Part shown: positions 21,651 through 62,853 of the stretch, piece by piece
Layout: each line of letters opens with the position of its first letter
Numbering within the stretch: the stretch's first letter is position 1
Origin: Eledone cirrhosa
Taxonomy: Eukaryota
NCBI GenBank assembly: GCA_964016885.1
Contig: OZ024741.1
Span: forward strand, 170,500,001-170,564,000
Reading direction: 5' to 3'
Length of the DNA stretch: 64,000 nucleotides
The notes under the pieces: generated by a model
Told to the model about the DNA's origin: nothing
Databases searched by the model: none
Seen by the model: the letters and a program-made list of their open reading frames with translations, nothing else
Program-made: the position numbers and the translations under genes

Positions 21651-21699
21651 GATTCTACAGGACTAGAACTGTTTCATTCATTAGAAATCATCAGGAATC
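21651..21699 (-). ncRNA. Type I hammerhead (GUA site) inside a perfect 63-bp-arm palindrome (21634-21760)
   Basis: GATTC-CTGATGA-TTTC.TAAT.GAAT-GAA-ACAG..CTGT-A-GAATC. Confidence 0.75.
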
Positions 21700-21789
21700 C
21701 TGATGATTTCTAATGAATGAAACAGTTCTAGTCCTGTAGAATCTCATCTATATTAAAACTATATATATATATATATATAAATGGCTATT

Positions 21790-21964: not shown

Positions 21965-24900
21965 TATGGAATTTAAACCATAGGTAAATGGCAAGATGAC
22001 AACAACAATGATGACAGCAACACCAACAAGAACAACTCCGCCAAAAAAAGAAACAATTTCGTTCGCACAAACTGTCCAACAGATGGAACTATATACACAG
22101 ATTGACATCTGTAATGCCGAAGAATTGCTAAGAGATGCCAAGCAATATATAACTTTTAGGGAGAATGGCGCGTTTAGCATCACTTCTCCCCAAGAATTGC
22201 GTAGAGATACTGTCCTGAAAACCATAGTTTTCATGACAATCTCAAATACCACTAGAAAACCAGCTCAATTAACTCAAAATGAAACTGAGCTGGTTCTAAG
22301 AAACTCCATGAAGGACATTACCTTCATACAGAAGGGAAAACTCTTCGGGAATTTATCGGTAATAATAAAAGACCAATTGCCGGCACAGAAATATTCTGTG
22401 TCGCCAATTGTGACCCACCTCTACACCTTTTTCCCCACATATGTGGGGAAAAGGAACCCAACAATAAGGGTAACGAGTATCGCACCAAATGTAAATATCT
22501 GGTGGATATTGAGTGGCTTTATCAACTTTGATGAATACACAATAATACCGTTAGTACCGTTAAATATAGTACCGTTACATATACTCCTTCCAGGAGTATA
22601 TTTAACAGTACTAGCTTAGAAGTTCTGGTCCAAATGAGGCCAGAACGAATAGCTAGAATCCCACAACTTGTGCCTCTGGATGGAGTTTCCTACATAAACA
22701 TTTCTGTTGAGGGTAGGCGGCCTTCATGTTACCACTGTTTAAGCAGTGGTCACCAGAGGGCTTCCTGTCCTCAATTAACTGCGATAAAAAAGGCACTACT
22801 GCCAACACCCAACAAAACAACACAACCACCACCACCACCACCACCAGAACAACAACAACAACACACAAAAATAACGAAAACAAACCAAACCGCAAACACA
22901 GTCCCACCCAACCTCTTCCCACCTAAAACAACTCCAAAAACACCCACAAGCACAACAGCTCCTCAAAACGGACCCCTCCCCAATCACACATACACCACAA
23001 CGGACGAGGCCCCGTCATCATCACTCAGTGATGATGAGAGAGTACCCCTCCGCTCCAAAAGGAAAAAAAAAGACATAACACGAACAAAAACGCAACAAAC
23101 ACACAACCACCAACACAAACAACACAAACATTACAAACAAAAATCCCCCCTCCTGAAAACAAAACAACGACAACACTCCAAACACAAACACCTACAACAA
23201 AACGAAAACGCACACAAGAACAACAGACAAAAACCAGCACAACACAACAAGAACATTACACATACATAAACAGTGAAAACAAAACCTAAATGGAGGTCAT
23301 CTCCAACGACCCTTCGGTGAATACCGAAGGGAAAACTTTTTCGAACTGTGTAGACAGACCCAATTTAAAGATGATTAGGGTCTCTACGGATACCTATAAG
23401 TCTTTCCCAAGGACGTTGGTAATCCTTGCGTTAAATCCATTAACCGCGTCCTTTTAAAATGTCCATGATCCACAGCGAGCGGTAACTGGCCCCCATCTTC
23501 GACGACTTTGAGATCTACGCATCTCTGTGTCAGCCGGGAGGTGGGGGCGGGGTTGCCGTTTTGCTGCGGAAACACTTGGACCTCGTAACACAGATGGTAC
23601 ATCTGGACTCGGAGGGTTGACTGGTGGTCCACTGTTGACGGTCGTGAAGGTGTAGCTTTCAGACTGGTGGCCTCATATGCCCCATCCGGGACACCGCGGC
23701 CAGACTTCTTCAAACGTCTAGAGACTTTTCTGGGAAGGTGCCGCTCCCTGCTGTTAGTGGGGGACTGGAATGGAATCCTAGAGTCACGTTGGGACTATGT
23801 GGGAGCATGTCCCGATGGAGGGGGTTTGGGGGTGTAACAGCCTCAAACAGGTAATCGGCCGATTTCAACTGGCCGATAGATATCGACTAGATTTTCCAAC
23901 TGTGCCACTGTGAACGTGGAACAACCACAGCGGAACATCTAGATCGTACCTAGATAGGTTTATAGTTAGAGTTAGTGATAGGGACATGTTAAACTGTCCA
24001 CAAATGTTCATGGTTCCCTATTCAGATCACAAACTAGTGACCTTCTTAGTCAACCTTGATAGAACCCATAGACAGAGACCCAGCTACTGGAAGATGAACT
24101 TGGCGTTACCGACATGCAAAGCCTACAGTAAACGGATTAGCACTTTCGTTAAGGAGCAGTTGACGGGGGCCATTGTCAGCAACAGATGGTGGTACACTCT
24201 CAAGAGGGCAGTCAGATTAGACTCGATAGTGTTAGTAAAGAATTAGTGTTAGATAGAAATAAGACCGAAAAGGAACTGGTAGATAAAGTAGAAGAGGCAC
24301 TTAGGAGTGGCAACGTAGTCAGCGTGCTAACGACGAGAACGGCCTTGGACCAGTTCTTCGACGCAAAGCACGAATGCTGCGTTGTCAGGAGCAAAATACG
24401 TGCTCTGGGAAACGAGGGAGCCAAAGCTGTTAACTGGGCCCGAGTGACAGAGCAAAAAAGTGGCAACAAGTCCACGATTTGGTCTTTGAAGGACCAAGAC
24501 GGACGCGTGATACGTGAGCCGAAGCAGATGTGCGTGTCCCTTCAGCGGCAATTTGCTCAACTGTTCGGGCAGAGCGGCGCTACGGGAGGGGCTATGGATT
24601 TCAGTCCATACCTCGATGGCCTGCCGCGACTCTCGAACAGCGAGGCGAAGTTCTGCGAAAGGCCGATTTCGGCCGCTGAGATAGGGGACGCGCTGAACCA
24701 ATGCGGCAAACGCAAATATCCAGGAATTTTACGTACAATGCCGGACTTGTTCTCCGGTCTCCTGGAAGCGGTCTACTGCAACTGGCAGCAGAATGGGAGA
24801 ATTTCCCGTTCTGTGACCAAGGGCGTAGTCACGTTAGTCAGGAAGGACGAGAATAAAGGGGATGACATAGGCAACTTCCAGCTCATAACACTGCTACACA

Positions 24901-26112
24901 CAGTGTTACAGATTTTGGCCAAGGTGTTGGCAAAGAGGTTGGCGCTTGCCTTCGAAAACCTGGTGGGAGAAGCGCAGACATGCGCAATCCCGACCAGGTC
25001 CATACACGACAACCCCCAACTCATGCGATACATCATAGAGAGGGTAGTCTGTAAACCCGGCTTCAGTGGGGCCCTGATAAACTTGGATCAGTCTAAGGCT
25101 TTCGATAGGGTTGACCATCGTTACCTGGAAGTGGTGCTCGAGGCGGCAGGGTTCGTACCCGTGTTCAGGGGCTGGATTGCTGCAATGCACAGCAGCAACA
25201 TCTGCTCAAGGGTCATGATGAATGGCTACCTCCGGAGCCGTTCCATATCACGAGATCCATCCGACAGGGATGCCCTCTCTCCTCTCTTCTGTACGTACTG
25301 ACTCTCGAGCCACTACTGCGGAAGTTGGAGATATTGCAGGGCATCCCTTTGGAACCGGGACTGCGAAAAGCGGCGTTACAGTAATGTTGTCGAACACCTC
25401 GCAGATCGGGGAGGTCGGCACCTTACTGAAGGAATACGAAAGGTTCACAGGAGCGAAGCTGAACCGGAACAAATCCGTCGGTTTGCAACTCGGAACGTGG
25501 ATAGGCAAACCGATACCTTCCGATGGCGTCGTCGGACGCTGGACGGAAGGACCGGTAAAGCTGCTCGGGGTCTGATTTGGTCCTGACCTCCAGGTGGAGA
25601 AGAACTGGAACGAGGTGACGGCCAAGGTGTTTGCTCTCACCCAGAAGTGAGCCGAGTGCAAACTATCCTTGAAAGGTCGAGCGGAGGTGGCGAACACTTT
25701 TATAGCGTCTGTCATCTACTACCGCTTGATCGCCGTGCCTTGTCCCGCCAAAACGCTCACCAAAATGGAGCGCGCGCTCTTCCAATTCCTTTGGAAGAAA
25801 CGGGCTCCTTTGGTGAGAAGATCCATCTGCTGTCAACACCCTTCCAACGGAGGGCTGGGGGTGTCGTGGCTGACGATGCGCAATCACGCTCTCAGGCTGC
25901 GGCACCTCCACGTATTCCTCACTGGACGACCGGTGTGGGCCCCGTTCGTGAGGCGAGCCTTCCTACGACTCGTCTCGCTGACCGAGCTGCAATCCTGTGT
26001 CAAGCAAAGACCGAGGAAAATGGGCAACTGGCACATCGAATGTGCTCAGGCGCTCACAGTCCTCTGGCAAATGGACACGGCGATCAGTAGAGACTCCACT
26101 TCGTCATTCTAG
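21965..26112 (+). mobile_element. Decayed Tx1/L1-clade LINE: ORF1 with zinc knuckle, ORF2 with APE + RT; 3' truncated
   Basis: ORF1 CYHCLSSGHQRASC (CX2CX4HX4C). APE motifs LVGDWN, SYLDRF, SDHKLV. RT motifs KILAKVLA-like, QTCAIP, LDQSKAFDRVDH. Many stops and frameshifts. Confidence 0.9.
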
Positions 26113-37230: not shown

Positions 37231-37495
37231 AAAAATTGGTTTACAGATAGTAACATATCTACATATGAACTTAATGTTATAAGTTCTATGTTATGTGTTC
37301 AGTTTTAATGTTATCCTCATGAGCATCTTCATCTCGAGGTTTGAAGTTTTGTTGAAAATAGAAGTGACATAGTCACTACTTTAAAATAATAGCGTAAGGT
37401 CTTCAAAATGTTTTTAATTAAGCATACAGTATATTGCCAAAAATATACTATATATACATTCATGTATACATCGGTATTTCAGAGCACCAATTCTA

Positions 37496-37541
<46 letters not shown>

Positions 37542-37618
37542 ATAATAATAAATGCGAAGACTAAAATCCGAAGAGGGCTCGATAAGGATATATATATATC
37601 ATATATATATATATAAAT

Positions 37619-37652
<34 letters not shown>

Positions 37653-38488
37653 CTATATATATATATGCGTGTGATGATCAGGAATATAACGTCGTTCATC
37701 ATGTTTTTTCATTCACGGCTGACCTGAGGATAAACGAGAATTGTATCTTAACCAACGATGGCTCCTCGACGTTTTAGAGATAACTTCTAAATCCGGCTTT
37801 TCGTCTTGATAAAAGGGGGATAATTGAGATGATAATTGGTTAGTTGGTCAATATAGGTATTCCCCAAAGAAGGACGAAATAGTCTTATGGAGAACCTTTT
37901 TTAACGTAGCTTACTTTGATTAGATTCTTCTTGAAGCCACAGCAGCGCAACATCAACAATAAAAGCAACCTCACCAGCAGAAATAAATCATCATCACTAA
38001 CAATAACAGCAATAACCACGTAAAAAACAACAGTACCAACAACAATAACAGCAAAAACAGCATCATCAAGAAACAGCATCATTTCATACATATTTTTGTG
38101 AAAATAGATGAACGAAATATAACTGATTGTCATCGTATGCAACGAGATGGTCATGGTTAAAGCCTATTTTATTGTGTTCTATTTCGACTCTAAACAACAA
38201 CAAAAACAGCCCATACTAATGTTATTGATGGAAGAGGCAAAAAGAATCCGATTCCGATCTTATTAAAGTGAATAATGAACTGACTTTAATCAACCTTGTT
38301 AAAATCTATAACGACCCGACATCAATAGCTTTCTTAAACATCAGATTGTCCGTTTACCGGTGTCCACATCGTGATAAATATTCGGACCTGGTCTTTTTGT
38401 TGATACTATATTTTCCTCTTCCTTCCTTAATTCCTGTACACGATAATAATATAAATGTGCATAAATATATCAATATATATGTATATCA

Positions 38489-38542
<54 letters not shown>

Positions 38543-38859
38543 AACCAGTAAGACCCCGACAGCTGAGCTCAAGCCGTTTCGACGGCTAATTCTCTAATAT
38601 ATATATATATATTTCGTTTCTGAATTTGTTTAGCAAGATTCTTTATCTGAAAACGTGTGTTGAAACCGATATTGTTATACTTTGGGAGGGTCATGTTGCC
38701 AATAAGAAACACACGCAGCAGTTGCTTTCACTTCAATTTATTATAATACATTTATAAATTCAAGAATTTATAAATTTCGGGTTGGTTGGTTGGTTCCACA
38801 ACCAGATGGTTGTTTATATATTGTCAAAGTTCTTTCGTCACACTTTCTGTGACCTCTTC

Positions 38860-42027: not shown

Positions 42028-42156
<129 letters not shown>

Positions 42157-42184
42157 TGTATATATGTATATATATGTATATATG

Positions 42185-42468
<284 letters not shown>

Positions 42469-42514
42469 TATATACATATATACATATATACATATATTTA
42501 TATATATATAGGTA

Positions 42515-42559
42515 AATATTGCTGATGAGTTGTAACAACAACGAAACTAGTTCAATATT
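42515..42559 (+). ncRNA. Minimal type I hammerhead (GUU site)
   Basis: AATATTG-CTGATGA-GTTG..CAAC-GAA-ACTAGT-T-CAATATT. Confidence 0.85.
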
Positions 42560-42981
42560 CCTTGTCTGGCTTTCTGGAGAATAGAGGAAAGGTGTTTCCT
42601 CGAAAACCAGTATGACTCTAAAAACCGGTTTGTCTGTGTGTTTACATACAGAATAGCTGGGTTACTCACAGTAAAGTAACCAGTGAAAGACTTGTTACAT
42701 CTACATATGTATACGTGTGTGTATTCATATGCATACTAGTATTTCAGTATGCATATGTGGATGTACATTTTTAACTTAATTGTTTAAGCGTCAGTCATAC
42801 AAAAGTGAGTTACAAACGAAACGAAATTTAATTTCGTTTCGTTATTTGTTTTTATCGTTTCCGCTGAACCGGTGCGTACTCACACTCTATGCAAATTAGT
42901 CTGCCCACTACTAATTTTCATAGAAAAAGCATATAACGATATGTGCTTTTACGATTCTCCAGAAAGGCCGGTAGATAGGTA

Positions 42982-43026
42982 AATATTGCTGATGAGTTGT
43001 AACAACAACGAAACTAGTTCAATATT
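42982..43026 (+). ncRNA. Minimal type I hammerhead, second identical copy
   Basis: Identical to 42515-42559, 467 nt downstream. Confidence 0.85.
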
Positions 43027-43253
43027 CCTTGTCTGGCTTTCTGGAGAATAGAGGAAAGGTGTTTCCTCGAAAACCAGTATGACTCTAAAAACCGGTTTGT
43101 CTGTGTGTTTACATACAGAATAGCTGGGTTACTCACAGTAAAGTAACCAGTGAAAGACTTGTTACATCTACATATGTATACGTGTGTGTATTCATATGCA
43201 TACTAGTATTTCAGTATGCATATGTAGATGTACATTTTTTACTTAATTGTTTA

Positions 43254-43357
<104 letters not shown>

Positions 43358-43401
43358 TATGTATATATGTATATATGTATATATGTATATATATATATGA
43401 A

Positions 43402-43506
<105 letters not shown>

Positions 43507-44076
43507 ATATACAGAGAGAGAGTGTGTGTAAGAGAGGGAGAGAGAGAGAGAGTAACTGAAAGTAAAAGAGATAAATGTTGATTCATCTCATCGATCGAAT
43601 TATCTCCGTTAGTGAACATAAACTAACAATAATTGTATGATGTAACATATTGTCTTTATAACTGAGATTGACAATAAGGCCAATTCCTACACAGATTTCT
43701 ACCCACCTCATAACCACTCACAATCCGCCACACTTTTCACCCTCAGATTAACCTGTGTTTCTCTGCCAGTGTTTTTGTCGTAATTGTTGTTCATTGTGAT
43801 GGTTGTTTGTTGTTAATTAAGTTGGTGTTTGCTTTTGATTCTGATATATTTGCTTGTGTGTTATGTGGAACTTCTAAAGCGTTGCATAAATAAGAGGTGA
43901 ATAAACGAGGTGGGGTGTTATGTAGTGAGATCTGTCTTTCTGTGACAGCATATATATATATATATATATTATATAGTTATGTAATAAGCTCTCTAGCCTA
44001 CATAGAGCACTTTTTTCCTGTACCTTTCCGACGGAATTACTTCATTTATATATATTATATATATTATATATATATA

Positions 44077-44851
44077 TATTGTTATGCTTTGGGAGGGTCA
44101 TGTTGCCAATAAGAAACACACGCACCAGTTGCTTTCACTCCAATTTATTATAAATTCAATTTATAAATTTAAGAATCTATAAATTTCCGGTTTGTTGGTT
44201 GGTTCCATAACCGGACGGTTGTTCATATATTGTCAAAGTTCTTTCGTCACACATCCTGTGACCTCTTCAGTGACTGGGGATTCTTTTCTTTGTTTTGTGC
44301 CTCTCCTTTGTTCTGTCCTACGCCATCTTGTTTGTGTGTGTGTTGTGTGCTTAGTTTGCGCATGTGTTACATCCGGGTGTCTGTGTGTGTTTTTATTTGT
44401 TTATTTATTTGTTTATTTACATGGTACTGGTTGGTTGTTTGTTCTGTGTGTGTGTGTGTGTGTTTTCATTTTGTTCTTAATTATAAGTTGTGATGTTGCT
44501 ATTCCATTCATGTTTTCTATTTAATTTTGGTTGGAGTTCATTTATGTTTATTGACTCTGTGATTTGTCTAAACCTTGCGTCTTTTCTGTGTGTAGATTGT
44601 CTTTTTATTTCTATGTTCTCTAATTTGCCCTTATGTTCTATTTTAGCATGTTGGTGGAGAATTGATGATTCTTGTTTATCTTGAAGTTCTCGCCAGTGTT
44701 CATTTAACCGTTCTCTTATACTACGAGCTGTCTCACCTATGTACACTATATTCTTATCTTTACATTGTCCTTCAGTACATCTTATGCTATATACTACATT
44801 TCTAGGTCTACAGTTAATATGGGGGCTTTGTATACAGATTATGCATTTCAT
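44077..44851 (-). mobile_element. 3' part of a PLE: GIY-YIG with CCHH-like motif, 3' UTR and hammerhead (44232-44274)
   Basis: NVVYSIRCTEGQCKDKNIVYIGETARS..EH..HQHAKIEH..RQITE..LNRKHEW; GTCA-CTGAAGA-G-GTCACA/TGTGAC-GAAAGAACTT-TGAC. Confidence 0.9.
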
Positions 44852-44861
44852 ATCTTGGTTC

Positions 44862-45110
44862 GACCCATAATTGCCGTCAGCGAGACCAGGATTTTCGAAA
44901 CGCGTGCACTAACCCCCATTTTCGACTACTATCAGATCTTTGCATCTGTTAGTTGGTCGGGAATGGGAGGTGGGTTGGCAGTGTTGTTTAGGAAAGGCCT
45001 GGATCTCGAGGTAAGGTCGATCTTCCGAGACCCGGATGGGAAGTTGGTGGTCCTGGACGTGAACAATAACGAAGGTGGTGCCTTTAGACTGGTGGCAATC
45101 TACGCCCCCA
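44862..45110 (+). pseudogene. Tx1-type APE endonuclease fragment
   Basis: IIAVSETR...GGGLAVLFRK...DGKLVVLDV...FRLVAIYAP. Confidence 0.8.
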
Positions 45111-50666: not shown

Positions 50667-51051
50667 AATTCCATATATGGTCAAAGTGATTGTCAAAAAT
50701 CAGTAGTAATTCTGTGGTTGCAAATTAGTAGGGGAGATGGTGGCTAAACCTGCCAGTAGGAGAAAGAGGGGAGGGGGTGGAGTAGCCCCAATCAAGCGTT
50801 TGTAGTGCCAGCTACAGTTGGGCATGAGGTCAAAGAAGATACAGGGGAGGGGGGGGGGGAGTCGGAACGGTAGGTAGAACAATGGGGGGTAGAAATATAT
50901 AGGAAAGAAAAAATACTGAGAGTGAAGAAAAGCAAATAAGTGTAAAGAAAAACAAAAGAGTATAAAGAAAGAAGTAAAGTAAATTAAATTCTACGACCTA
51001 GGTCTCTAGCTATTGTTAGTCTAGAATAAATAAATAAAGAAAGAAAGAAAG

Positions 51052-52848
51052 ATACACACACTGATCAGATACCACACACTGATCAGGAGCAGCCTAAACA
51101 CCACCTATAAAAAGGCCAACCACTCTTGCATCGAGGACATAAATCGAGATGGACAACTAATCACCTCCAGCCTCGGGGTCGCCGGCCGCACGGAACCTCT
51201 AGACCCACGGACACCATACTTCACACTGAAGGACCATAAATCCGATTTTGACCGTAAACCCTCTATCAGGCTTATTAACCCAACGAAGTCCGACATAGGG
51301 AGAATCAGCAAAAAAATCCTAGACCGCGTGATACCAAAAGTCAAGCAACACACCCGACTTAGCCTATGGATCATCACCCAGGAAGTAATCTCCTGGTTCA
51401 GCAATATGGAGGATAAACGAGAAACTAAATTCATACAGTTCGACATAGAGAGCTACTATGCTTCAATCACCTTACCGCTACTTACTGCCGCCTTGGACTT
51501 CGCCGAAACACTTGTGCCCATCACCGACCAGGAAAGAAAAATCATCCTCCACGCCAGGAAGACAGTCTTACTCTTTGACGACTCTAAATGGATAAAAAGA
51601 GCTCCCGACTCACCCTTCGACGTCAGCATGGGCGCCACGGATTCGGCGGAGGTCTCAGATCTTATAGGATTATTCCTAATAGCCAAACTCACTGATATGT
51701 TTCCTGCATTCGGTGGTGGATTGTACCGTGATGATGGGCTCCTTACCCTTAAAGGGTACAACCCCAGTAGTACAGATCGGGTCCGGAAACAATTAATCAG
51801 ATTCTTCCGCGACTGGGGATTTAAAATAACCCTACAAACGTCCCTGACCAGAGTAAACTTCCTGGACGTGACCCTCAACCTCGAAAACGACCTGTACTAC
51901 CCATACAGGAAACCTAATTACAATCTGCACTACATCCACCGCCGATCAAACCATCCTAGGAACATCACAAACAACCTGGTCAAAAACATCTCCCTCCGCA
52001 TATCCCGTTTGTCAGCTAATGAGCGGATATTCGATGAACATGCGCCTTATTACAACCAGGCCCTCAAGCGGAGTGGTTTCCGGGAGGAAATATCCTACTG
52101 TCCAGCTCCCATTAGCGGAACCAGCAGGAGACACCGCCGCTCACGCAATGTAACATGGTTCAATCCTCCCCACAACGCAGAGGTGACAACTCCCATCGGG
52201 AAACTATTCTTTAGGCTCATTGAAAAACACTTCCCATTACAACACCGCTACCACAACATAATTAACAAAAATACCATCAAACTCTCTTACAGCACTACAC
52301 CAAACTTCGCACAAAACATCGTCTCCTCTAACAACAAAAAACTCAACCCCGATGGCAAAAATAACCTAAATAGCAGTGGAGAACCGACCAGGAGGTGTAA
52401 CTGCCCGGATAGATCTATTTGCCCACTCGACAATAGATGCAGAGACCGTAATGTGATCTACCAGTGCAACGTGAGGACGGATACCTCCAACAAAGCCTAT
52501 ATAGGACTTACCGCTTGTGACTTCAAGACCCGGCTATACCAACATAGACATACCTTCCGAAACCCGGCCCGGCGTCACGCCACTACACTTTCGGGCCACA
52601 TATGGGACCTCAAGGACAACAACATCACCTATGATCTCACTTGGAGATTACTGTCCAGAGCCAATTCTTACACGGGAGGACGCCGTCCGTGCAATTTATG
52701 CTCGGAGGAAACTTTACAAATGCTGTTTTCGACGGACCAACTCCTAAACAAAAAAGATGAACTGGTTACTGCATGTAAACATAGATTGCGTAGGACTTAC
52801 CTCGCCCTCAAACCCCATAATGACCCGGGGGGTAGACTAGGGCTATAA
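51052..52848 (+). CDS. PLE reverse transcriptase + GIY-YIG endonuclease; uninterrupted frame, 5'-truncated at the inversion junction
   Basis: The frame continues upstream of the called ORF (TLKDHK..RLINPTKS). Motifs FDIESYY, MGATDSAE, LYRDDGL, FLDVTL, WFNPP, CNC..CPL..C, VIY..YIG..R..H, CNLC..E. Confidence 0.9.
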   Translation: MHTLIRYHTLIRSSLNTTYKKANHSCIEDINRDGQLITSSLGVAGRTEPLDPRTPYFTLKDHKSDFDRKPSIRLINPTKSDIGRISKKILDRVIPKVKQHTRLSLWIITQEVISWFSNMEDKRETKFIQFDIESYYASITLPLLTAALDFAETLVPITDQERKIILHARKTVLLFDDSKWIKRAPDSPFDVSMGATDSAEVSDLIGLFLIAKLTDMFPAFGGGLYRDDGLLTLKGYNPSSTDRVRKQLIRFFRDWGFKITLQTSLTRVNFLDVTLNLENDLYYPYRKPNYNLHYIHRRSNHPRNITNNLVKNISLRISRLSANERIFDEHAPYYNQALKRSGFREEISYCPAPISGTSRRHRRSRNVTWFNPPHNAEVTTPIGKLFFRLIEKHFPLQHRYHNIINKNTIKLSYSTTPNFAQNIVSSNNKKLNPDGKNNLNSSGEPTRRCNCPDRSICPLDNRCRDRNVIYQCNVRTDTSNKAYIGLTACDFKTRLYQHRHTFRNPARRHATTLSGHIWDLKDNNITYDLTWRLLSRANSYTGGRRPCNLCSEETLQMLFSTDQLLNKKDELVTACKHRLRRTYLALKPHNDPGGRLGL

Positions 52849-55992: not shown

Positions 55993-56010
55993 ATATATAT
56001 ATATATATAT

Positions 56011-56583
56011 ATTTCGTTTCTGAATTTGTTTAGCAAGATTCTTTATCTGAAATCGTGTGTTGAAACCGATATTGTTATACTTTGGGAGGGTCATGTTGCC
56101 AATAAGAAACACACGCACCAGTTGCTTTCACTTCAATTTAATTTAATATATATTTATAAATTTACAAATTTATAAATTTCTGGTTGGTTGGTTGGTTCCA
56201 CAACCAGATAGTTGTTTATATATATATAGTCATAGTTCTTTCGTCACACACTCTGTGACCTCTTCAGTGACTGGGGATTTCTTTCTTCGTTTCTGTGCCT
56301 TTCCTTTGTTCTATCCTACGCCATTTTTTCAAAAAATGGCGTAGGATAGAAGAAAGGAAAGGCACAGAAACGAAGAAAGAAATCCCCAGTCACTGAAGAG
56401 GTCACAGAGTGTGTGACGAAAGAACTATGACTATATATATATAAACAACTATCTGGTTGTGGAACCAACCAACCAACCAGAAATTTATAAATTTGTAAAT
56501 TTATAAATATATATTAAATTAAATTGAAGTGAAAGCAACTGGTGCGTGTGTTTCTTATTGGCAACATGACCCTCCCAAAGTAT

Positions 56584-56592
<9 letters not shown>
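56011..56592. mobile_element. Near-perfect hairpin of PLE pLTR (about 260-bp arms) with hammerheads at 56228-56272 (-) and 56388-56432 (+)
   Basis: Centre at 56330; AGTCA-CTGAAGA-G-GTCACA/TGTGAC-GAAAGAACTA-TGACT. Confidence 0.9.
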
Positions 56593-56653
<61 letters not shown>

Positions 56654-56825
56654 ATATATAGGTGTATATATATAAACACGTCGGACAGATACAGGAAACA
56701 GAAAACTCGAAAGAGACAAGCGCATGGACAATCCCCCCTCTCAGCTATTTTCTGGGGATCATTATGAATGCTTTAGTATTACACACCCACACACGCCCAC
56801 CTATAATTATATATATATATATATA

Positions 56826-57931
56826 TATTGTTATACTTTGGGAGGATCATGTTGCCAATAAGAAACACACGCACCAGTTGCTTCACTTCAATTAATTATA
56901 ATAAATTTATAATAAATTCATAAATTTATAAATTTCTGGTTGGTTGGTTGGTTCCACAACCAGATAGTTGTTTATATATAGTCATAGTTCTTAGGTCACA
57001 CACTCTGTGACCTCTTCAGTGACTGGGGATTTCTTTCTTACTTTCTGTGCCCCTCCTTTGTTCTGTCCTACGCCATTTTGTTTCTGTGTGTGTGTTGTGT
57101 GCTCAGTCTGCGCATGCGCCACATCCGGGTGTCTGTGTGTTTATGTAGTGTATAGCATAAGATGTACTGAAGGACAATGTAGAGACAAAAATATAGTGTA
57201 CATAGGTGAGACAGCTCGTAGTGTAGGGGAACGGATAAATGAACACTGGCGAGACCTTCAAGATAATAAGATAATAAAGAATCATCTGTACTCTACCAAC
57301 ATGCTAAAATAGAACACAAGAGTAAAGTAGAGAACATAGAAATAAAAATAGAATCTACACACAGAAAAGACGCAATGTTTAGGCAAATTACAGAGGCAAT
57401 AAACATAAAAGAATTACAACCAAAATTAAATAGAAAATATGAGTGGAACAGCAACATCACAACTTACAATTAAGGACAAAATGAAAACACACACACACAT
57501 AGAACAAACAACCAACCAGTAACATGTAAATAAACAAATAAATAAATGAACGTAAACACACACAGACACCCGGATGTGGCGCATGCGCAGACTGAGCACA
57601 CAACACACACACATAAACAAAATGGCGTAGGACAGAACAAAGGAGAGGCACAGAAACAAAGAAAGGAATCCCCAGTCACTGAAGAGGTCACAGAGTGTGT
57701 GACGAAAGAACAACTATGACTATATATAAACAACTATCTGGTTGTGGAACCAACCAACCAACCAGAAATTTATAAATTTATAAATTTATTATAAATTTAT
57801 TATAATAAATTGAAGTGAAAGCAACTGGTGCGTGTGTTTCTTATTGGCAACATGACCCTCCCAAAGTATAACAATATCGGTTTCAACACACGATTTCAGA
57901 TAAAGAATCTTGCTAAACAAATTCAGAAACG

Positions 57932-57934
<3 letters not shown>
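56826..57934 (+). mobile_element. 5'-truncated PLE: inverted pLTR, GIY-YIG remnant, pLTR with hammerhead (57674-57721) and tail
   Basis: VVYSIRCTEGQCRDKNIVYIGETARSVGERINEH. 56826-57142 pairs with about 57555-57877. Confidence 0.9.
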
Positions 57935-57980
<46 letters not shown>

Positions 57981-58768: not shown

Positions 58769-61700
58769 TATTGTTATACTTGGGGAGGGTCATATTTGTG
58801 TATTGAGGGTACTTGCAGAAACATGACAACAACATACATAGGCGAGACAGCTCGTAGCATAGGCGAAAGGATATACCAACACTGGGGGGAACTAAAAGCA
58901 CGACCAAACGGTTCAGTACTATACGAAAATGCCAGACAACAACAGGACGGTAACATAGACAACATAGAAATTAGAATAATATCTAAACATAGAAATGTCC
59001 CAGCAGATAGGCAAAACAGTGAGGCCAGTGAAATGGAACTTAGAAGGCCAAGACTAAACAGAAAAAATGAATGGAATAACAACAACACACAAACAAACAA
59101 CACTAACCTAAGAGAAGTATAAATAAATAAATAAATAAATAAATAAATAGATGAATAAATAAGTACATACGCAAGCACAATAACAACAAACACATATAAA
59201 CACACACTAGTAAAGATAGAATACATTAACCAATACACAGTCACCCAATCACGAACACACATCATACAAAACACTATACACACACGCAAACGCATGCGCA
59301 AAGAAGACAAAAAAAACAAAACAATTAAATAAATATATAAACAGACTAAAAAAGATGGCGTAGAAAATACAAGGCAACGGGAGGAAACAATAGCACCACT
59401 GATGGTGTTGCAGATGTGCAACGAAAGAACTTTGATAAACTATATATATGTGTTGATAAACTATATATATAGAGTGGCGCCGGTAAGGTATTGTCAGCCA
59501 TTGAAAAGAAATATGGAGAGTCGATCTAACAGCAGTAGGGTTAGAGCCCCTAATTACACTGTCAAGGAGCAGCTTGGTCGTTATGACTCTGCTGGCTTAG
59601 AGCCACAGAGAGGGCCAGTGGATGATGGATCAGCTGTCTCTGAGACAAATATAAATAATGCAGTTTTGTCCTGCAGAAGAGCCATCAAAATGGGCACTTT
59701 GAATGTGAGGACTATTCGAACGCTGGAGAAGAGAGAGGAGTTGGGACATCTGTTCGAGGAGAGTGGTATACAGATACTTGCGATCCAAGAACACAGGATT
59801 CTAATCGATGAGCCCGTGAGGAGTATGATGATCGGGAGGAAGAGCCAGCTCATCACTACATCGGCAGTGAAGAACACAACAAATGCTGCAGTGGGAGGAG
59901 TGGGTTTTGTGTTTAGTGCAAAAACCAATCTGTTGGTGAGGGAAATAATGCCTATCCCCCCGCGAGTGTTGAGGGTGACCTTCAATGGAAACCGAAGACT
60001 GACAGTCATCTCAGCCTATAGTCCAACCGAGGGGGACAGTGATGTGAATGCGGAGGAGTTCCATGAGGGGGTGTGTAGAGCTGTCAACACCACTCAGGCA
60101 CACAATATCCTGCTTGTTTTGGGGGACTTCAATGCACATCTGAGTAAGGAGGGCAGTGAAGATCCTTGCTGGTACTTCCATAACAACACCAACCGAAATG
60201 GAAGACTACTGAGAGACACCCTGCTGGAAGCGAACTTGATGGCGACCAACCTAAGGTTTAGGAAGAAGCTGGGGAAGATGTGGACCTACATCTCAGATAT
60301 GCACCTGTCCAAGTCCCAGATTGATTTCATTCTGGTGAGGAAAAAGTGGCGGAATAGTGTTCTGAACACGGAACCATACAGCTATTTCAGTACACTGGGT
60401 AGTGAACACCGGCTTGTTATGAGTGAGGTCCGCGTGAGCTTAAGAAAGAGCAAGGCTCAGCCCCGGAAAACAATCTATGACTGGGGAGCTTTCAAGGAAG
60501 ATGATAAGCTACAGGAGAGGTTCACAGTGGAAGTGAGAAACAGGTTTAGTGCTCTGTGTGGAGAGTCAGAGGAGAGAGAGATTGGATGGACTGAGGAGAG
60601 TGTGACGAGGAGGTACGGGCACTTCGCCAATGCAGTGGCGAAAGCAAGTGAAACCCTGGTGCCGAGGAAAAAGAACAAAGGGAAGCACGTCAGCTCTGCA
60701 AACCCAAAAGTGTGTGCAGCCAGAGAACACCTGAAAGCTGCCAGGGACCAATTCTATGCTGATCCTACGGAGGAGAGGATGGAGACTGTGGAGGTGTTGA
60801 GGGAAGAGCTCTGTACCGCTTACACTGAGGTCAGAGAGGAGGCACTGATAGAGAAGATCAGAAGTGTGGAGAGAGCGGTTGACAGATCTGGATGTAAGGA
60901 GAGCTGGATGATCATCAACGAGATCACAGGGAGGAAGAAAAGGTGTTCGAGTCAGATCCAGGGAACGGGGCCCGAGGATAGGAAGAGGAATTAGCTAGAC
61001 CATTTTAGGACACTACTAGAGCCACCCTCCACAGCCCAGAGCACTGGGGAGATCAGGCGGCTGTTTGAGGAACTGGATGTTGAGACAGAGCCCTTCACCA
61101 GAGAGGAGCTTCAGAGAGCCAAGAAGAAGATCAAGGAGGGCAAGGCTCATGGAGAAGATGGAGTGGCATCAAAGGTGATGAAGAGGTGTGATTTTGATGA
61201 TATCATCCTGGTGTTCTGTAACGGGGCACTGGAGTTAGGAGTTGCCCCGAATCAGTGGAGGATCAGTAACATCGTCCCAGTGCCAAAGAAGGGAGATCTC
61301 TCTAACACCAACAACTACCGGGGGATCTCACTGACGTCACTTGTGGCAAAGACCCTCAACAGGATGATTCTTAACAGGATCCAGCCTGAGATGGAGAAGA
61401 AGCTCAAGGACAACCAGAACGGCTTCAGATAGGGTAGATCAACCACCAGTCACATCCTGATGCTGAGGAGGATATTAGAGGGAGCTAGAGCAAAGTGCCT
61501 TCCTGCGGTCATGGTTTTCATTGACTTTAGGAAGGCCTTTGATTCTGTGGACCGTTGCTGCCTGATGAAGATCTTACAGTCTTATGGAATCCCCAAGAGG
61601 ATAGTGGACCTGATATCACTGCTCTACACCAACACCAAAGCCCAAGTCATTACACCTGATGGGATGACAGAGTTCTTTGAGATACTGGCTGGAGTGCTCC

Positions 61701-62853
61701 AGGGAGATACATTGGCTCTCTACCTTTTTATCATCGTAGTGGACTTTTGTATGCGCCTTGCACTGGAGAAACACCAGGACTCTGGCTGTACTGTAGCACC
61801 GGCTCAGAGCAGGAGAATTGGGGCGAAAAAGGTATCGGATGCTGAATTTGCCGACGACATAGTTTTGGTGACAAATACAGTGAAGGAGGCAGAGGATTTG
61901 ATGCGGGAGGTTGAGACTGTGTCGATGAGTGTGGGGCTGAGAATGAATGAGACTAAAACAAAATATCTGGTAGAGAATGTTGAGAAGCCAGAGGGGATTA
62001 CTAATGTAGGCGGGAAGCCGCTGGAATTGGTTGAGGACTTCCTGTATTTGGGAGCAAAATTGGGAATACGGAGGATGATGTGGTTGAGAGGAAGAGCAAG
62101 GCCTGGGCGGCGTGCCACAGCTTGAGATCGGTGTGGAAGTCGGACCTTCGTAGAGACCTGAAAATCCGCCTCTTCATCGCTGTAGTGGAGTCTGTGCTGC
62201 TGTATGGGTCTGAGACTTGGACACTGACCAAGAAACTCACTCAGATGAGGGATGGGTGCTACACGTGAATGCTGAGGATGGCTCTGAACATTAATCAGTA
62301 TACACTGAGGATGAAAAACTCAGAGCTGTATGGGAGCATCCCAAAAGTCAGCTCAAAAGTGACACAGAGGAGACTGAGGTTGGCTGGACATGCTCACTGA
62401 CATCCAGAGTTGACATTGCACTCAGTGCTCCTTTGGGATCCCCTACATGGACACACTAGAAGAGGAAGACCAAGGTTAACATATGTTGATGCCCTAAGGA
62501 CAGACACTGGTCTGTTGGAGATGCAGGATATGGCAGCGATAATGAGGGACAGAGACCGCTGGAGAGAACTCGTCCATGGATCTCGGGAATTTTACCCGCC
62601 TTAGATAGATAGATATATGTGTTTGTGTCTATATTGTATCTGTATTTTTTATCGTTGGTCAGTCAATGGTAACATTGAGGAACGAATGAATTAAATTAAC
62701 CGATATAAAAGACACAGAAGCGAAAAGCGAAAACCAACCAAACAGTGAGTATGTTCTGTTATTAATTCTGGCAATATTACATAAATATGACTCTCCCCAA
62801 GTATAACAATATTTGTTTCGACACACGATTTCATATCAAAAACCTCGCAAAGC
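58769..62853 (+). mobile_element. Related PLE remnant (GIY-YIG, 3' UTR, hammerhead-like 59397-59434) split by an RTE insertion
   Basis: YIGETARSIGERIYQH..LNRKNEW. The short inverted arm 58769-58797 matches 62783-62811. Confidence 0.8.
59472..62615 (+). mobile_element. Nearly full-length decayed RTE-clade LINE (APE + RT) with (TAGA)n tail
   Basis: GTLNVRT, QEHR, SAYSPT, LGDFNAH, IDFILV; YRGISL, QNGFR, FIDFRKAFDSV, GVLQGD, FADDI. Stops at 60992 and 61430, frameshift near 62060. Confidence 0.95.

Follow-up and report, generated by a model that had tools for sequence, protein, structure and literature searches.

Retrozymes and Penelope-like elements

Non-LTR retrozymes were defined by Cervera and de la Pena (2020; PMC7229834), who showed that they give rise to circular RNA, proposed that the circles are copied by a reverse transcriptase (RT) and considered Penelope-like elements (PLEs) strong candidates for supplying it. 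As described in the accessible text of that paper, the retrozymes of coral, mussel and axolotl are non-coding tandem units of 150–450 bp, each with one canonical type I hammerhead; they have a GC content below 50%, are highly self-paired, occur in thousands of copies and are found together with PLEs. In a more recent study (Li, Clavereau and Pollet 2026; bioRxiv 10.64898/2026.07.22.740005, below bioRxiv 2026.07.22.740005), where unit sizes extend from 51 to 972 bp, it was likewise concluded that PLEs mobilise retrozymes; in the part of the preprint available, a PLE origin is inferred from co-occurrence and pLTR homology, and the mechanism is left open.

PLEs with a C-terminal endonuclease, exemplified by the Poseidon PAc elements (PMC11167929; PMC8557442), provide the second point of comparison. 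The PLE protein cuts and extends both DNA strands; synthesis begins at two sites within the RNA, and the stretch between them is the 'tail' (PMC11167929). PLE copies are accompanied by inverted, 5'-truncated copies with the tail at one end only, according to the accessible part of PMC8557442.

A tandem unit embedded in a TA tract

The window analysed here is a stretch of 64,000 nt from contig OZ024741.1 of the Eledone cirrhosa genome assembly. The retrozyme insertion occupies positions 42510–43253 (+) and consists of a 467-nt unit (42510–42976) followed head to tail by a partial second copy (42977–43253, 277 nt), amounting to 1.6 units in a single arm. The two copies, spaced by 467 nt, differ at two positions only (42759/43226 and 42773/43240). 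They are bordered by unstranded (TA)n tracts on the left (42028–42509) and on the right (43254–43511), and with (TA)n on both flanks of insertions a target-site duplication, which in non-LTR retrozymes exceeds 4 bp when present, is unreadable. Three tandem units contain no ATG-started frame longer than 22 aa, and the GC content of the unit is 35.8%. The initial annotation of this locus, a non-coding unit repeated 1.6 times within TA tracts, is thus borne out. Its 3' limit, 43253, also stands; its start, 42511, does not, since the element begins at about 42510 and this 5' end is a variable truncation, by chance coinciding with the beginning of a hammerhead, and not a fixed end. The 3' end (43242–43253, +) runs into (TA)n at a position that recurs throughout the family (site A, see below), and the window copy has retained the A arm only.

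With 467 nt the unit is somewhat larger than those of PMC7229834 and falls within the range of bioRxiv 2026.07.22.740005. Circular RNA has been shown for the former retrozymes, whereas the present family is known from DNA sequence alone. Two other assignments were considered and rejected: plant LTR retrozymes carry type III hammerheads in LTRs that flank a unique centre, while the motif here is type I and the units lie head to tail; and no ORF with RT and GIY-YIG domains, as expected of an autonomous PLE (pLTR), was found in sense in the unit or in 17 flanks.

Canonical type I hammerheads with a palindromic helix III

Each unit copy opens with a 53-nt type I hammerhead motif (42510–42562 and 42977–43029, both +), and the two motifs are identical. 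The core is intact. In the conventional helix numbering, helix I comprises 7 bp, a bulge and 3 bp, helix II has 4–5 bp with an A-rich loop, and helix III, the sole short helix of the motif, is a 6-nt palindrome (42546–42551 in the first copy). The cleavage triplet, which in hammerheads follows the NUH rule, is GUU, a weaker triplet than GUC; it places the predicted cuts after 42552 and 43019, where the initial annotation had put them, and these would delimit a non-coding monomer of 467 nt (42553–43019, +). Each of the 23 variant types listed has U, C or A immediately before the cut; the search pattern permitted any base.

Minimal hammerheads of the PLE type have reduced helices and are devoid of the usual loop 1 and loop 2 elements. 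The contrast between these and canonical hammerheads is drawn in the accessible text of PMC7229834. Although the identical, palindromic type I motifs exactly 467 nt apart had been recognised correctly, their description as minimal has to be abandoned: the bulged helix I, the length and A-rich loop of helix II and the alignment to Rfam Hammerhead_HH9 all identify them as canonical. Both match the full HH9 model (E 9.3e-08, 38.6 bits, and E 2e-06, 34.4 bits; gathering score 52), and no Rfam family reached its gathering score anywhere in the window. Closest in architecture are the axolotl HHR_Amex1 and newt satellite hammerheads, which, as far as described in the accessible text of PMC7229834, share the very weak helix III, the palindromic cap and canonical helices I and II and cleave well only as dimers; the sequence of their units is unrelated to that of the present retrozyme.

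In an alignment of eight hammerheads from the window family and its sister family (see below), 96.3% of the cells pair, compared with 36–54% in slid controls. Two-sided changes affect 3/10 pairs of helix I and 3/5 pairs of helix II (6/17 pairs overall), and the covariation score was reached by none of 500 shuffles, a control that ignores relatedness, the two-sided changes reflecting few independent events. With this qualification, the covarying helices point to a hammerhead ribozyme under selection.

An abundant family with a diverged sister

In order to assess the distribution of the unit, the whole assembly (3.0 Gb, 1796 contigs) was searched. Of 538 candidates from the DNA search with the unit, 38 were scored, and these gave 190 matches; those listed were 97–100% identical. 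The exact hammerhead pattern matched the genome 6,205 times and a looser pattern, which also captures the sister family, 37,208 times, with no match to the control in either case. Arrays in the 67 loci mapped range from <1 to about 30 units per arm; the longest seen, in a locus with one arm only, comprises about 50 units (24 kb) and lies at contig C5:39860600-39884689. On sequence criteria, the window family is a young and very abundant repeat. The tandem non-coding units with type I hammerheads, the thousands of copies and the covarying helices together uphold its initial identification as a retrozyme.

The sister retrozyme family (e.g. L114:1966-2431(-) and L157:2082-2503(+)) has units of 422–538 nt, and a single exact variant of its hammerhead has 10,374 matches. 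It is commoner than the window family and has the same fold and ends; it is characterised by a TA-rich internal rod of variable length, a GUA cleavage triplet and a U-U mismatch at the base of helix II. A scan of metagenomes returned 44 single matches, none of which (0/44) was similar to either retrozyme family by BLAST; two of the 44 were loosely hammerhead-like.

Insertions with two fixed 3' ends

The 67 loci, a small share of probably thousands, were drawn from the best DNA-search matches (37), by position from the list of exact hammerheads (24) and from another genome search (6); arms or pieces of at least 28 nt were counted. Of 114 such arms or pieces, 105 end at one of two points of the unit, site A (unit 271–279; 45 arms) or site B (unit 344–347; 60 arms), which are about 70 nt apart (69–74 nt). 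Nearly all of these (99/105) are followed by (TA)n, and every locus with two opposite arms ending at A or B has one of each (38/38). The remaining nine pieces are mostly short junction inversions, and one stops at an assembly gap. In the sister family, ends fall at homologous points and two-armed loci, read by eye, combine A and B in 8/8 cases. Site A lies inside a small hairpin (42775–42788, +), a putative RT start site, and site B, which may be the second, follows a U-rich unpaired stretch. The segment between them (42787–42855, +; unit 346 = 42855) constitutes the tail, present on one arm only of two-armed loci. Both sites are mid-monomer, away from the ribozyme; downstream of the cut, the distance is 234 nt to A and 303 nt to B.

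As far as can be read from sequence, ends of one A and one B in TA are the tail signature of PLEs. The likeness to PLEs with a C-terminal endonuclease (PMC11167929 and the accessible part of PMC8557442) includes two 3' ends, a tail on one arm, an inverted 5'-truncated arm, partial tandems, an AT-rich target and a hammerhead upstream of the start sites. Unlike the Poseidon PAc PLEs described there, the retrozyme has no ORF, its tail is about 70 nt rather than 30–40 bp, and its start sites are U-rich instead of lying in an AC-rich stem-loop. Non-autonomous elements of the Chlamys clade, e.g. MRC1, are also non-coding PLE passengers with multicopy head-to-tail insertions; in the accessible part of PMC8557442, however, this clade mostly lacks canonical hammerheads, and the 3' ends of its passengers are similar to those of autonomous families. 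Since copies sit in TA microsatellites and have two fixed ends, as in Penelope-like transposons, a PLE enzyme likely inserts the retrozyme, and we consider it very likely that the family is mobilised by a PLE. The TA targeting and PLE mobilisation proposed at the outset thus gain support from the arms and from helix covariation. As a whole, that interpretation was right about the retrozyme, TA and the PLE and wrong about the minimal hammerhead, and it had missed the two fixed mid-monomer 3' ends.

Some flanks deserve separate mention. At L007 and L135/L136 the DNA beyond the TA tracts forms an inverted duplication on either side of a two-armed insertion. Other tandem units, of about 613 and about 400 nt, directly adjoin the 5' junction of single retrozyme arms (L131:3255-4507 and L132:357-1433); a simple scan detected no hammerhead in them.

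Fold of the monomer

The monomer is predicted to be heavily self-paired, as initially proposed: its minimum free energy is -162.7 kcal/mol as a linear molecule (z -10.2; 0/100 shuffles equally stable) and -158.4 as a circle (z -11.2; 0/200 shuffles equally stable). All the hairpin motifs originally listed for it are present. A branched fold plan is common to both retrozyme families, with two-sided change in 23 of 82 consensus pairs. The complementarity noted between the 5' and 3' ends of the monomer is real and continues helix I; by itself it does not point to a circle, because the same stem would form between adjacent units of a linear multimer too.

When the circle is folded in silico, helices I and II are present (pair probabilities 0.66–0.99), helix III is absent (0.0), and the loop of helix III is paired with the core (0.72–0.92). 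These model pairings, together with the analogy to dimer-dependent hammerheads, suggest that tandem RNA may be cleaved by way of palindromes pairing with each other, and that a monomer circle would remain closed.

RNA template of the insertions

We propose the following model for the window copy as a 5'-truncated copy of a non-LTR retrozyme. The retrozyme would be transcribed, and its transcripts would likely cleave themselves into 467-nt monomers, probably via helix III palindromes paired in the tandem transcript. By analogy with the retrozymes of PMC7229834, as far as accessible, a host ligase would likely close the monomers into circles. A PLE protein would then likely nick both strands of a TA tract and start reverse transcription at sites A and B. 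A single protein dimer would serve the two strands, priming at site A on the first and at site B on the second; copying would probably roll round the circular template, and the two cDNAs would be joined back to back. Some arrays have been lengthened by later duplication at the DNA level. Judging from the motif, its covariation, the fold, the ends and TA, we hold this model as a whole with moderate confidence. The same moderate confidence attaches to the circle as the main template. More doubtful, though possible, is the specific version in which a dimer of the 1267-aa PLE protein described below would engage one 467-nt circle through the conserved fold, prime the TA strands at the two fixed sites and copy 17 or more turns on each side, with cutting confined to tandem RNA.

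Given the distances of A and B from the cut, any arm longer than these must have been copied across the cleavage junction. This holds for 93/105 arms, a proportion inflated by the use of whole units or hammerheads to locate the copies. The 5' ends of arms are spread over the unit and only 2/105 fall within 5 nt of the cleavage site (2.5 expected), which argues against cut linear RNA as the usual template and leaves circles or uncut multimers.

Near-identical arrays of 20 or more units across both arms fit rolling-circle copying of a circle. Locus L033 has arms of 5.8 and 14.3 units whose internal units, 19 over the two arms, all carry one variant, and the exact 31-mer with this variant matches the genome 18 times, each time at L033 (18/18). 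In locus L084_85, about 20 units are identical apart from one base, located at the junction; like L121_22, this locus has two long arms with next to no variation. When five array-wide variants were checked, one (that of L033) was private and the other four occurred in several loci; the latter are subfamily markers, so that only L033 speaks for a single monomer template, and its source could be absent from the assembly.

The main competitor, which we regard as rather unlikely, retains the family and PLE priming at A and B and takes as template an uncut linear multimer transcribed from an existing array, cleavage and circles being side products or serving another role. Hammerhead cleavage was dispensable in vitro, where uncut RNA was the main template (PMC11167929), and according to the accessible part of bioRxiv 2026.07.22.740005 one of nine retrozyme dimers cleaved. 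Long arrays that could act as sources are present in the genome (an arm with about 50 matches at C5:39.86 Mb, 17 matches at C18), and long uncut transcripts would give no 5' pile-up at the cleavage site either. Arms of mixed units that switch haplotype or share the order of differing units (L016, L049 and L125), and two arms of different haplotype (L035), fit linear multimers or two RNAs; the ordered heterogeneous units of L016 and L049 count in favour of this competitor. Against this, 14–17 consecutive hammerheads would have to stay uncut in spite of their covarying helices, the L033 variant occurs at no other locus of the assembly, and the origin of homogeneous long sources would still have to be accounted for. 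In L125 (1776-2242) an arm changes subfamily between unit positions 44 and 112, an interval that opens at the cleavage site; this one case may reflect either ligation of a mixed dimer at the ribozyme or a jump of the RT.

Considerably less probable is that short PLE-made insertions were expanded afterwards by unequal crossover or slippage, in which case array length would be uninformative on the RNA template. Local DNA amplification is the explanation given for retrozyme arrays in the accessible part of bioRxiv 2026.07.22.740005, and variants with periods of two and four units, broken by the terminal unit, show that DNA-level expansion has occurred in L002, L037 and L048; variants also recur in L082_83. 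The youngest loci (L033, L084_85 and L121_22) are nevertheless long and almost invariant in both inverted arms, and each would thus need two independent, fast expansions. The alternating units of L002, L048 and L037 were also considered as products of dimeric circles, a reading rejected because the terminal unit breaks the period. A 496-nt contig resembling a de Bruijn cycle (466+30), from a run of contigs of unknown kind, was not counted, as trace DNA of tandem arrays would give the same.

A candidate driver PLE

A candidate for the PLE enzyme is encoded by an intact 1267-aa ORF in a 4286-bp tandem unit. Its hammerhead lies 173 nt before the ATG, and its two ends, 60 nt apart (compared with the 69–74 nt of the retrozyme tail), fall inside the start of the ORF. 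Two-armed loci with both ends in view are of the A+B type, in TA, in 10/10 cases. The best 108 of 43,703 candidates are 99–100% identical over 381 aa with no stops, which makes this PLE as young as the youngest retrozymes. That its family is the driver is a tentative assignment to which we give slightly less than an even chance: an intact, TA-targeting PLE with matching A+B arms shows presence, not partnership with the retrozyme. The full PLE unit has no significant DNA similarity to the retrozymes (best E 0.069 for the window family; E 0.006, low-complexity, for the sister family), and the match at E 0.069, an 18/21 antisense correspondence between end B of the retrozyme and end B of the PLE, was treated as chance. 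A Pfam search with the 1267-aa ORF found nothing; the GIY-YIG domain was detected only in a fragment of this PLE within the window (44076–44908, -; E 4.7e-05), a truncated 3' piece outside the retrozyme that has its own hammerhead near 44270 and ends in TA. Also outside the retrozyme, the window contains a two-armed pLTR insertion of the candidate (56009–56591, unstranded), 98–100% identical to the intact unit and with one end of each type. Further sites of the family are at window 56825–57937 and 38609–38859 and at L147:5347-9147(-). The hammerhead of this PLE is of type I, and its arms of more than two 4286-bp units run through hammerheads too.

Among the flanks of 17 single arms, three lead to PLE coding fragments that point away from the retrozyme and belong to three families (L042, L031 and L055). 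L031 and L055 abut fragments of two other PLE families, and the sole direct junction between candidate PLE and retrozyme (L042/L128) joins two B ends. At L027 the window and sister retrozyme families are joined. One further flank of the 17, at L034 (2190-2490), leads to a TA-ending element, whose hammerhead has a different helix III palindrome and which forms the opposite arm of a retrozyme insertion; L034-like DNA is present at window 37389–37666 and related motifs at 21694–21700.

That the unit is simply the pLTR of a coding PLE missed by the sample, the loci being its truncated ends, is very improbable: the PLE-type ends of the retrozyme loci, the retrozyme pLTR homology reported in Xenopus (accessible part of bioRxiv 2026.07.22.740005) and the limited number of loci read leave some room for this possibility raised by the initial annotation, but the units lie head to tail with no ORF, none of the 17 single-arm flanks read has a sense ORF upstream, and the start sites that fall inside the ORF start in the candidate PLE and in PMC11167929 have no such frame around them in the retrozyme.

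Other retroelement frames are present in the window and the sampled loci. A 604-aa open frame at 51034–52848 (+) represents a second PLE-like family, with RT and GIY-YIG-like motifs recognisable by eye; it had no match in Pfam. LINE-type endonuclease/RT frames occur at window 59333–62300 and 24153–26112 (broken) and at L132:1688-4807 (a 1040-aa open frame).

Implications

The class of non-LTR retrozymes is already known, and the window family is a new addition to it. The initial statement that no description of this family was known applies to the family, which was not found in the literature searched, and not to the class, described in the accessible text of PMC7229834 and bioRxiv 2026.07.22.740005. 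Neither the present family nor a PLE-end signature in retrozymes was reported in that literature, which took in few subscription papers. By term search, tails, inverted arms and microsatellite targets are all absent from the main text of PMC7229834, and tails and inverted arms in retrozymes from that of bioRxiv 2026.07.22.740005. In the latter study the case for PLEs is built on co-occurrence and pLTR homology, whereas here no pLTR homology was found with the one full PLE unit compared, and the case is built on insertion anatomy, which, as read from the genome, is unusually direct evidence for PLE mobilisation of a retrozyme.

As far as their accessible text goes, both defining papers (PMC7229834 and bioRxiv 2026.07.22.740005) left open which enzyme mobilises animal retrozymes and whether the circle is the template. 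For the Eledone cirrhosa family the start sites have been mapped and are shared with a diverged sister family, two-armed loci strictly combine one A with one B end, some arrays are very young, and a candidate enzyme is intact; with these the question becomes testable in the published in vitro PLE assay. For the genome itself, about 37,000 hammerhead motifs make these retrozymes a sizeable repeat class of Eledone cirrhosa.
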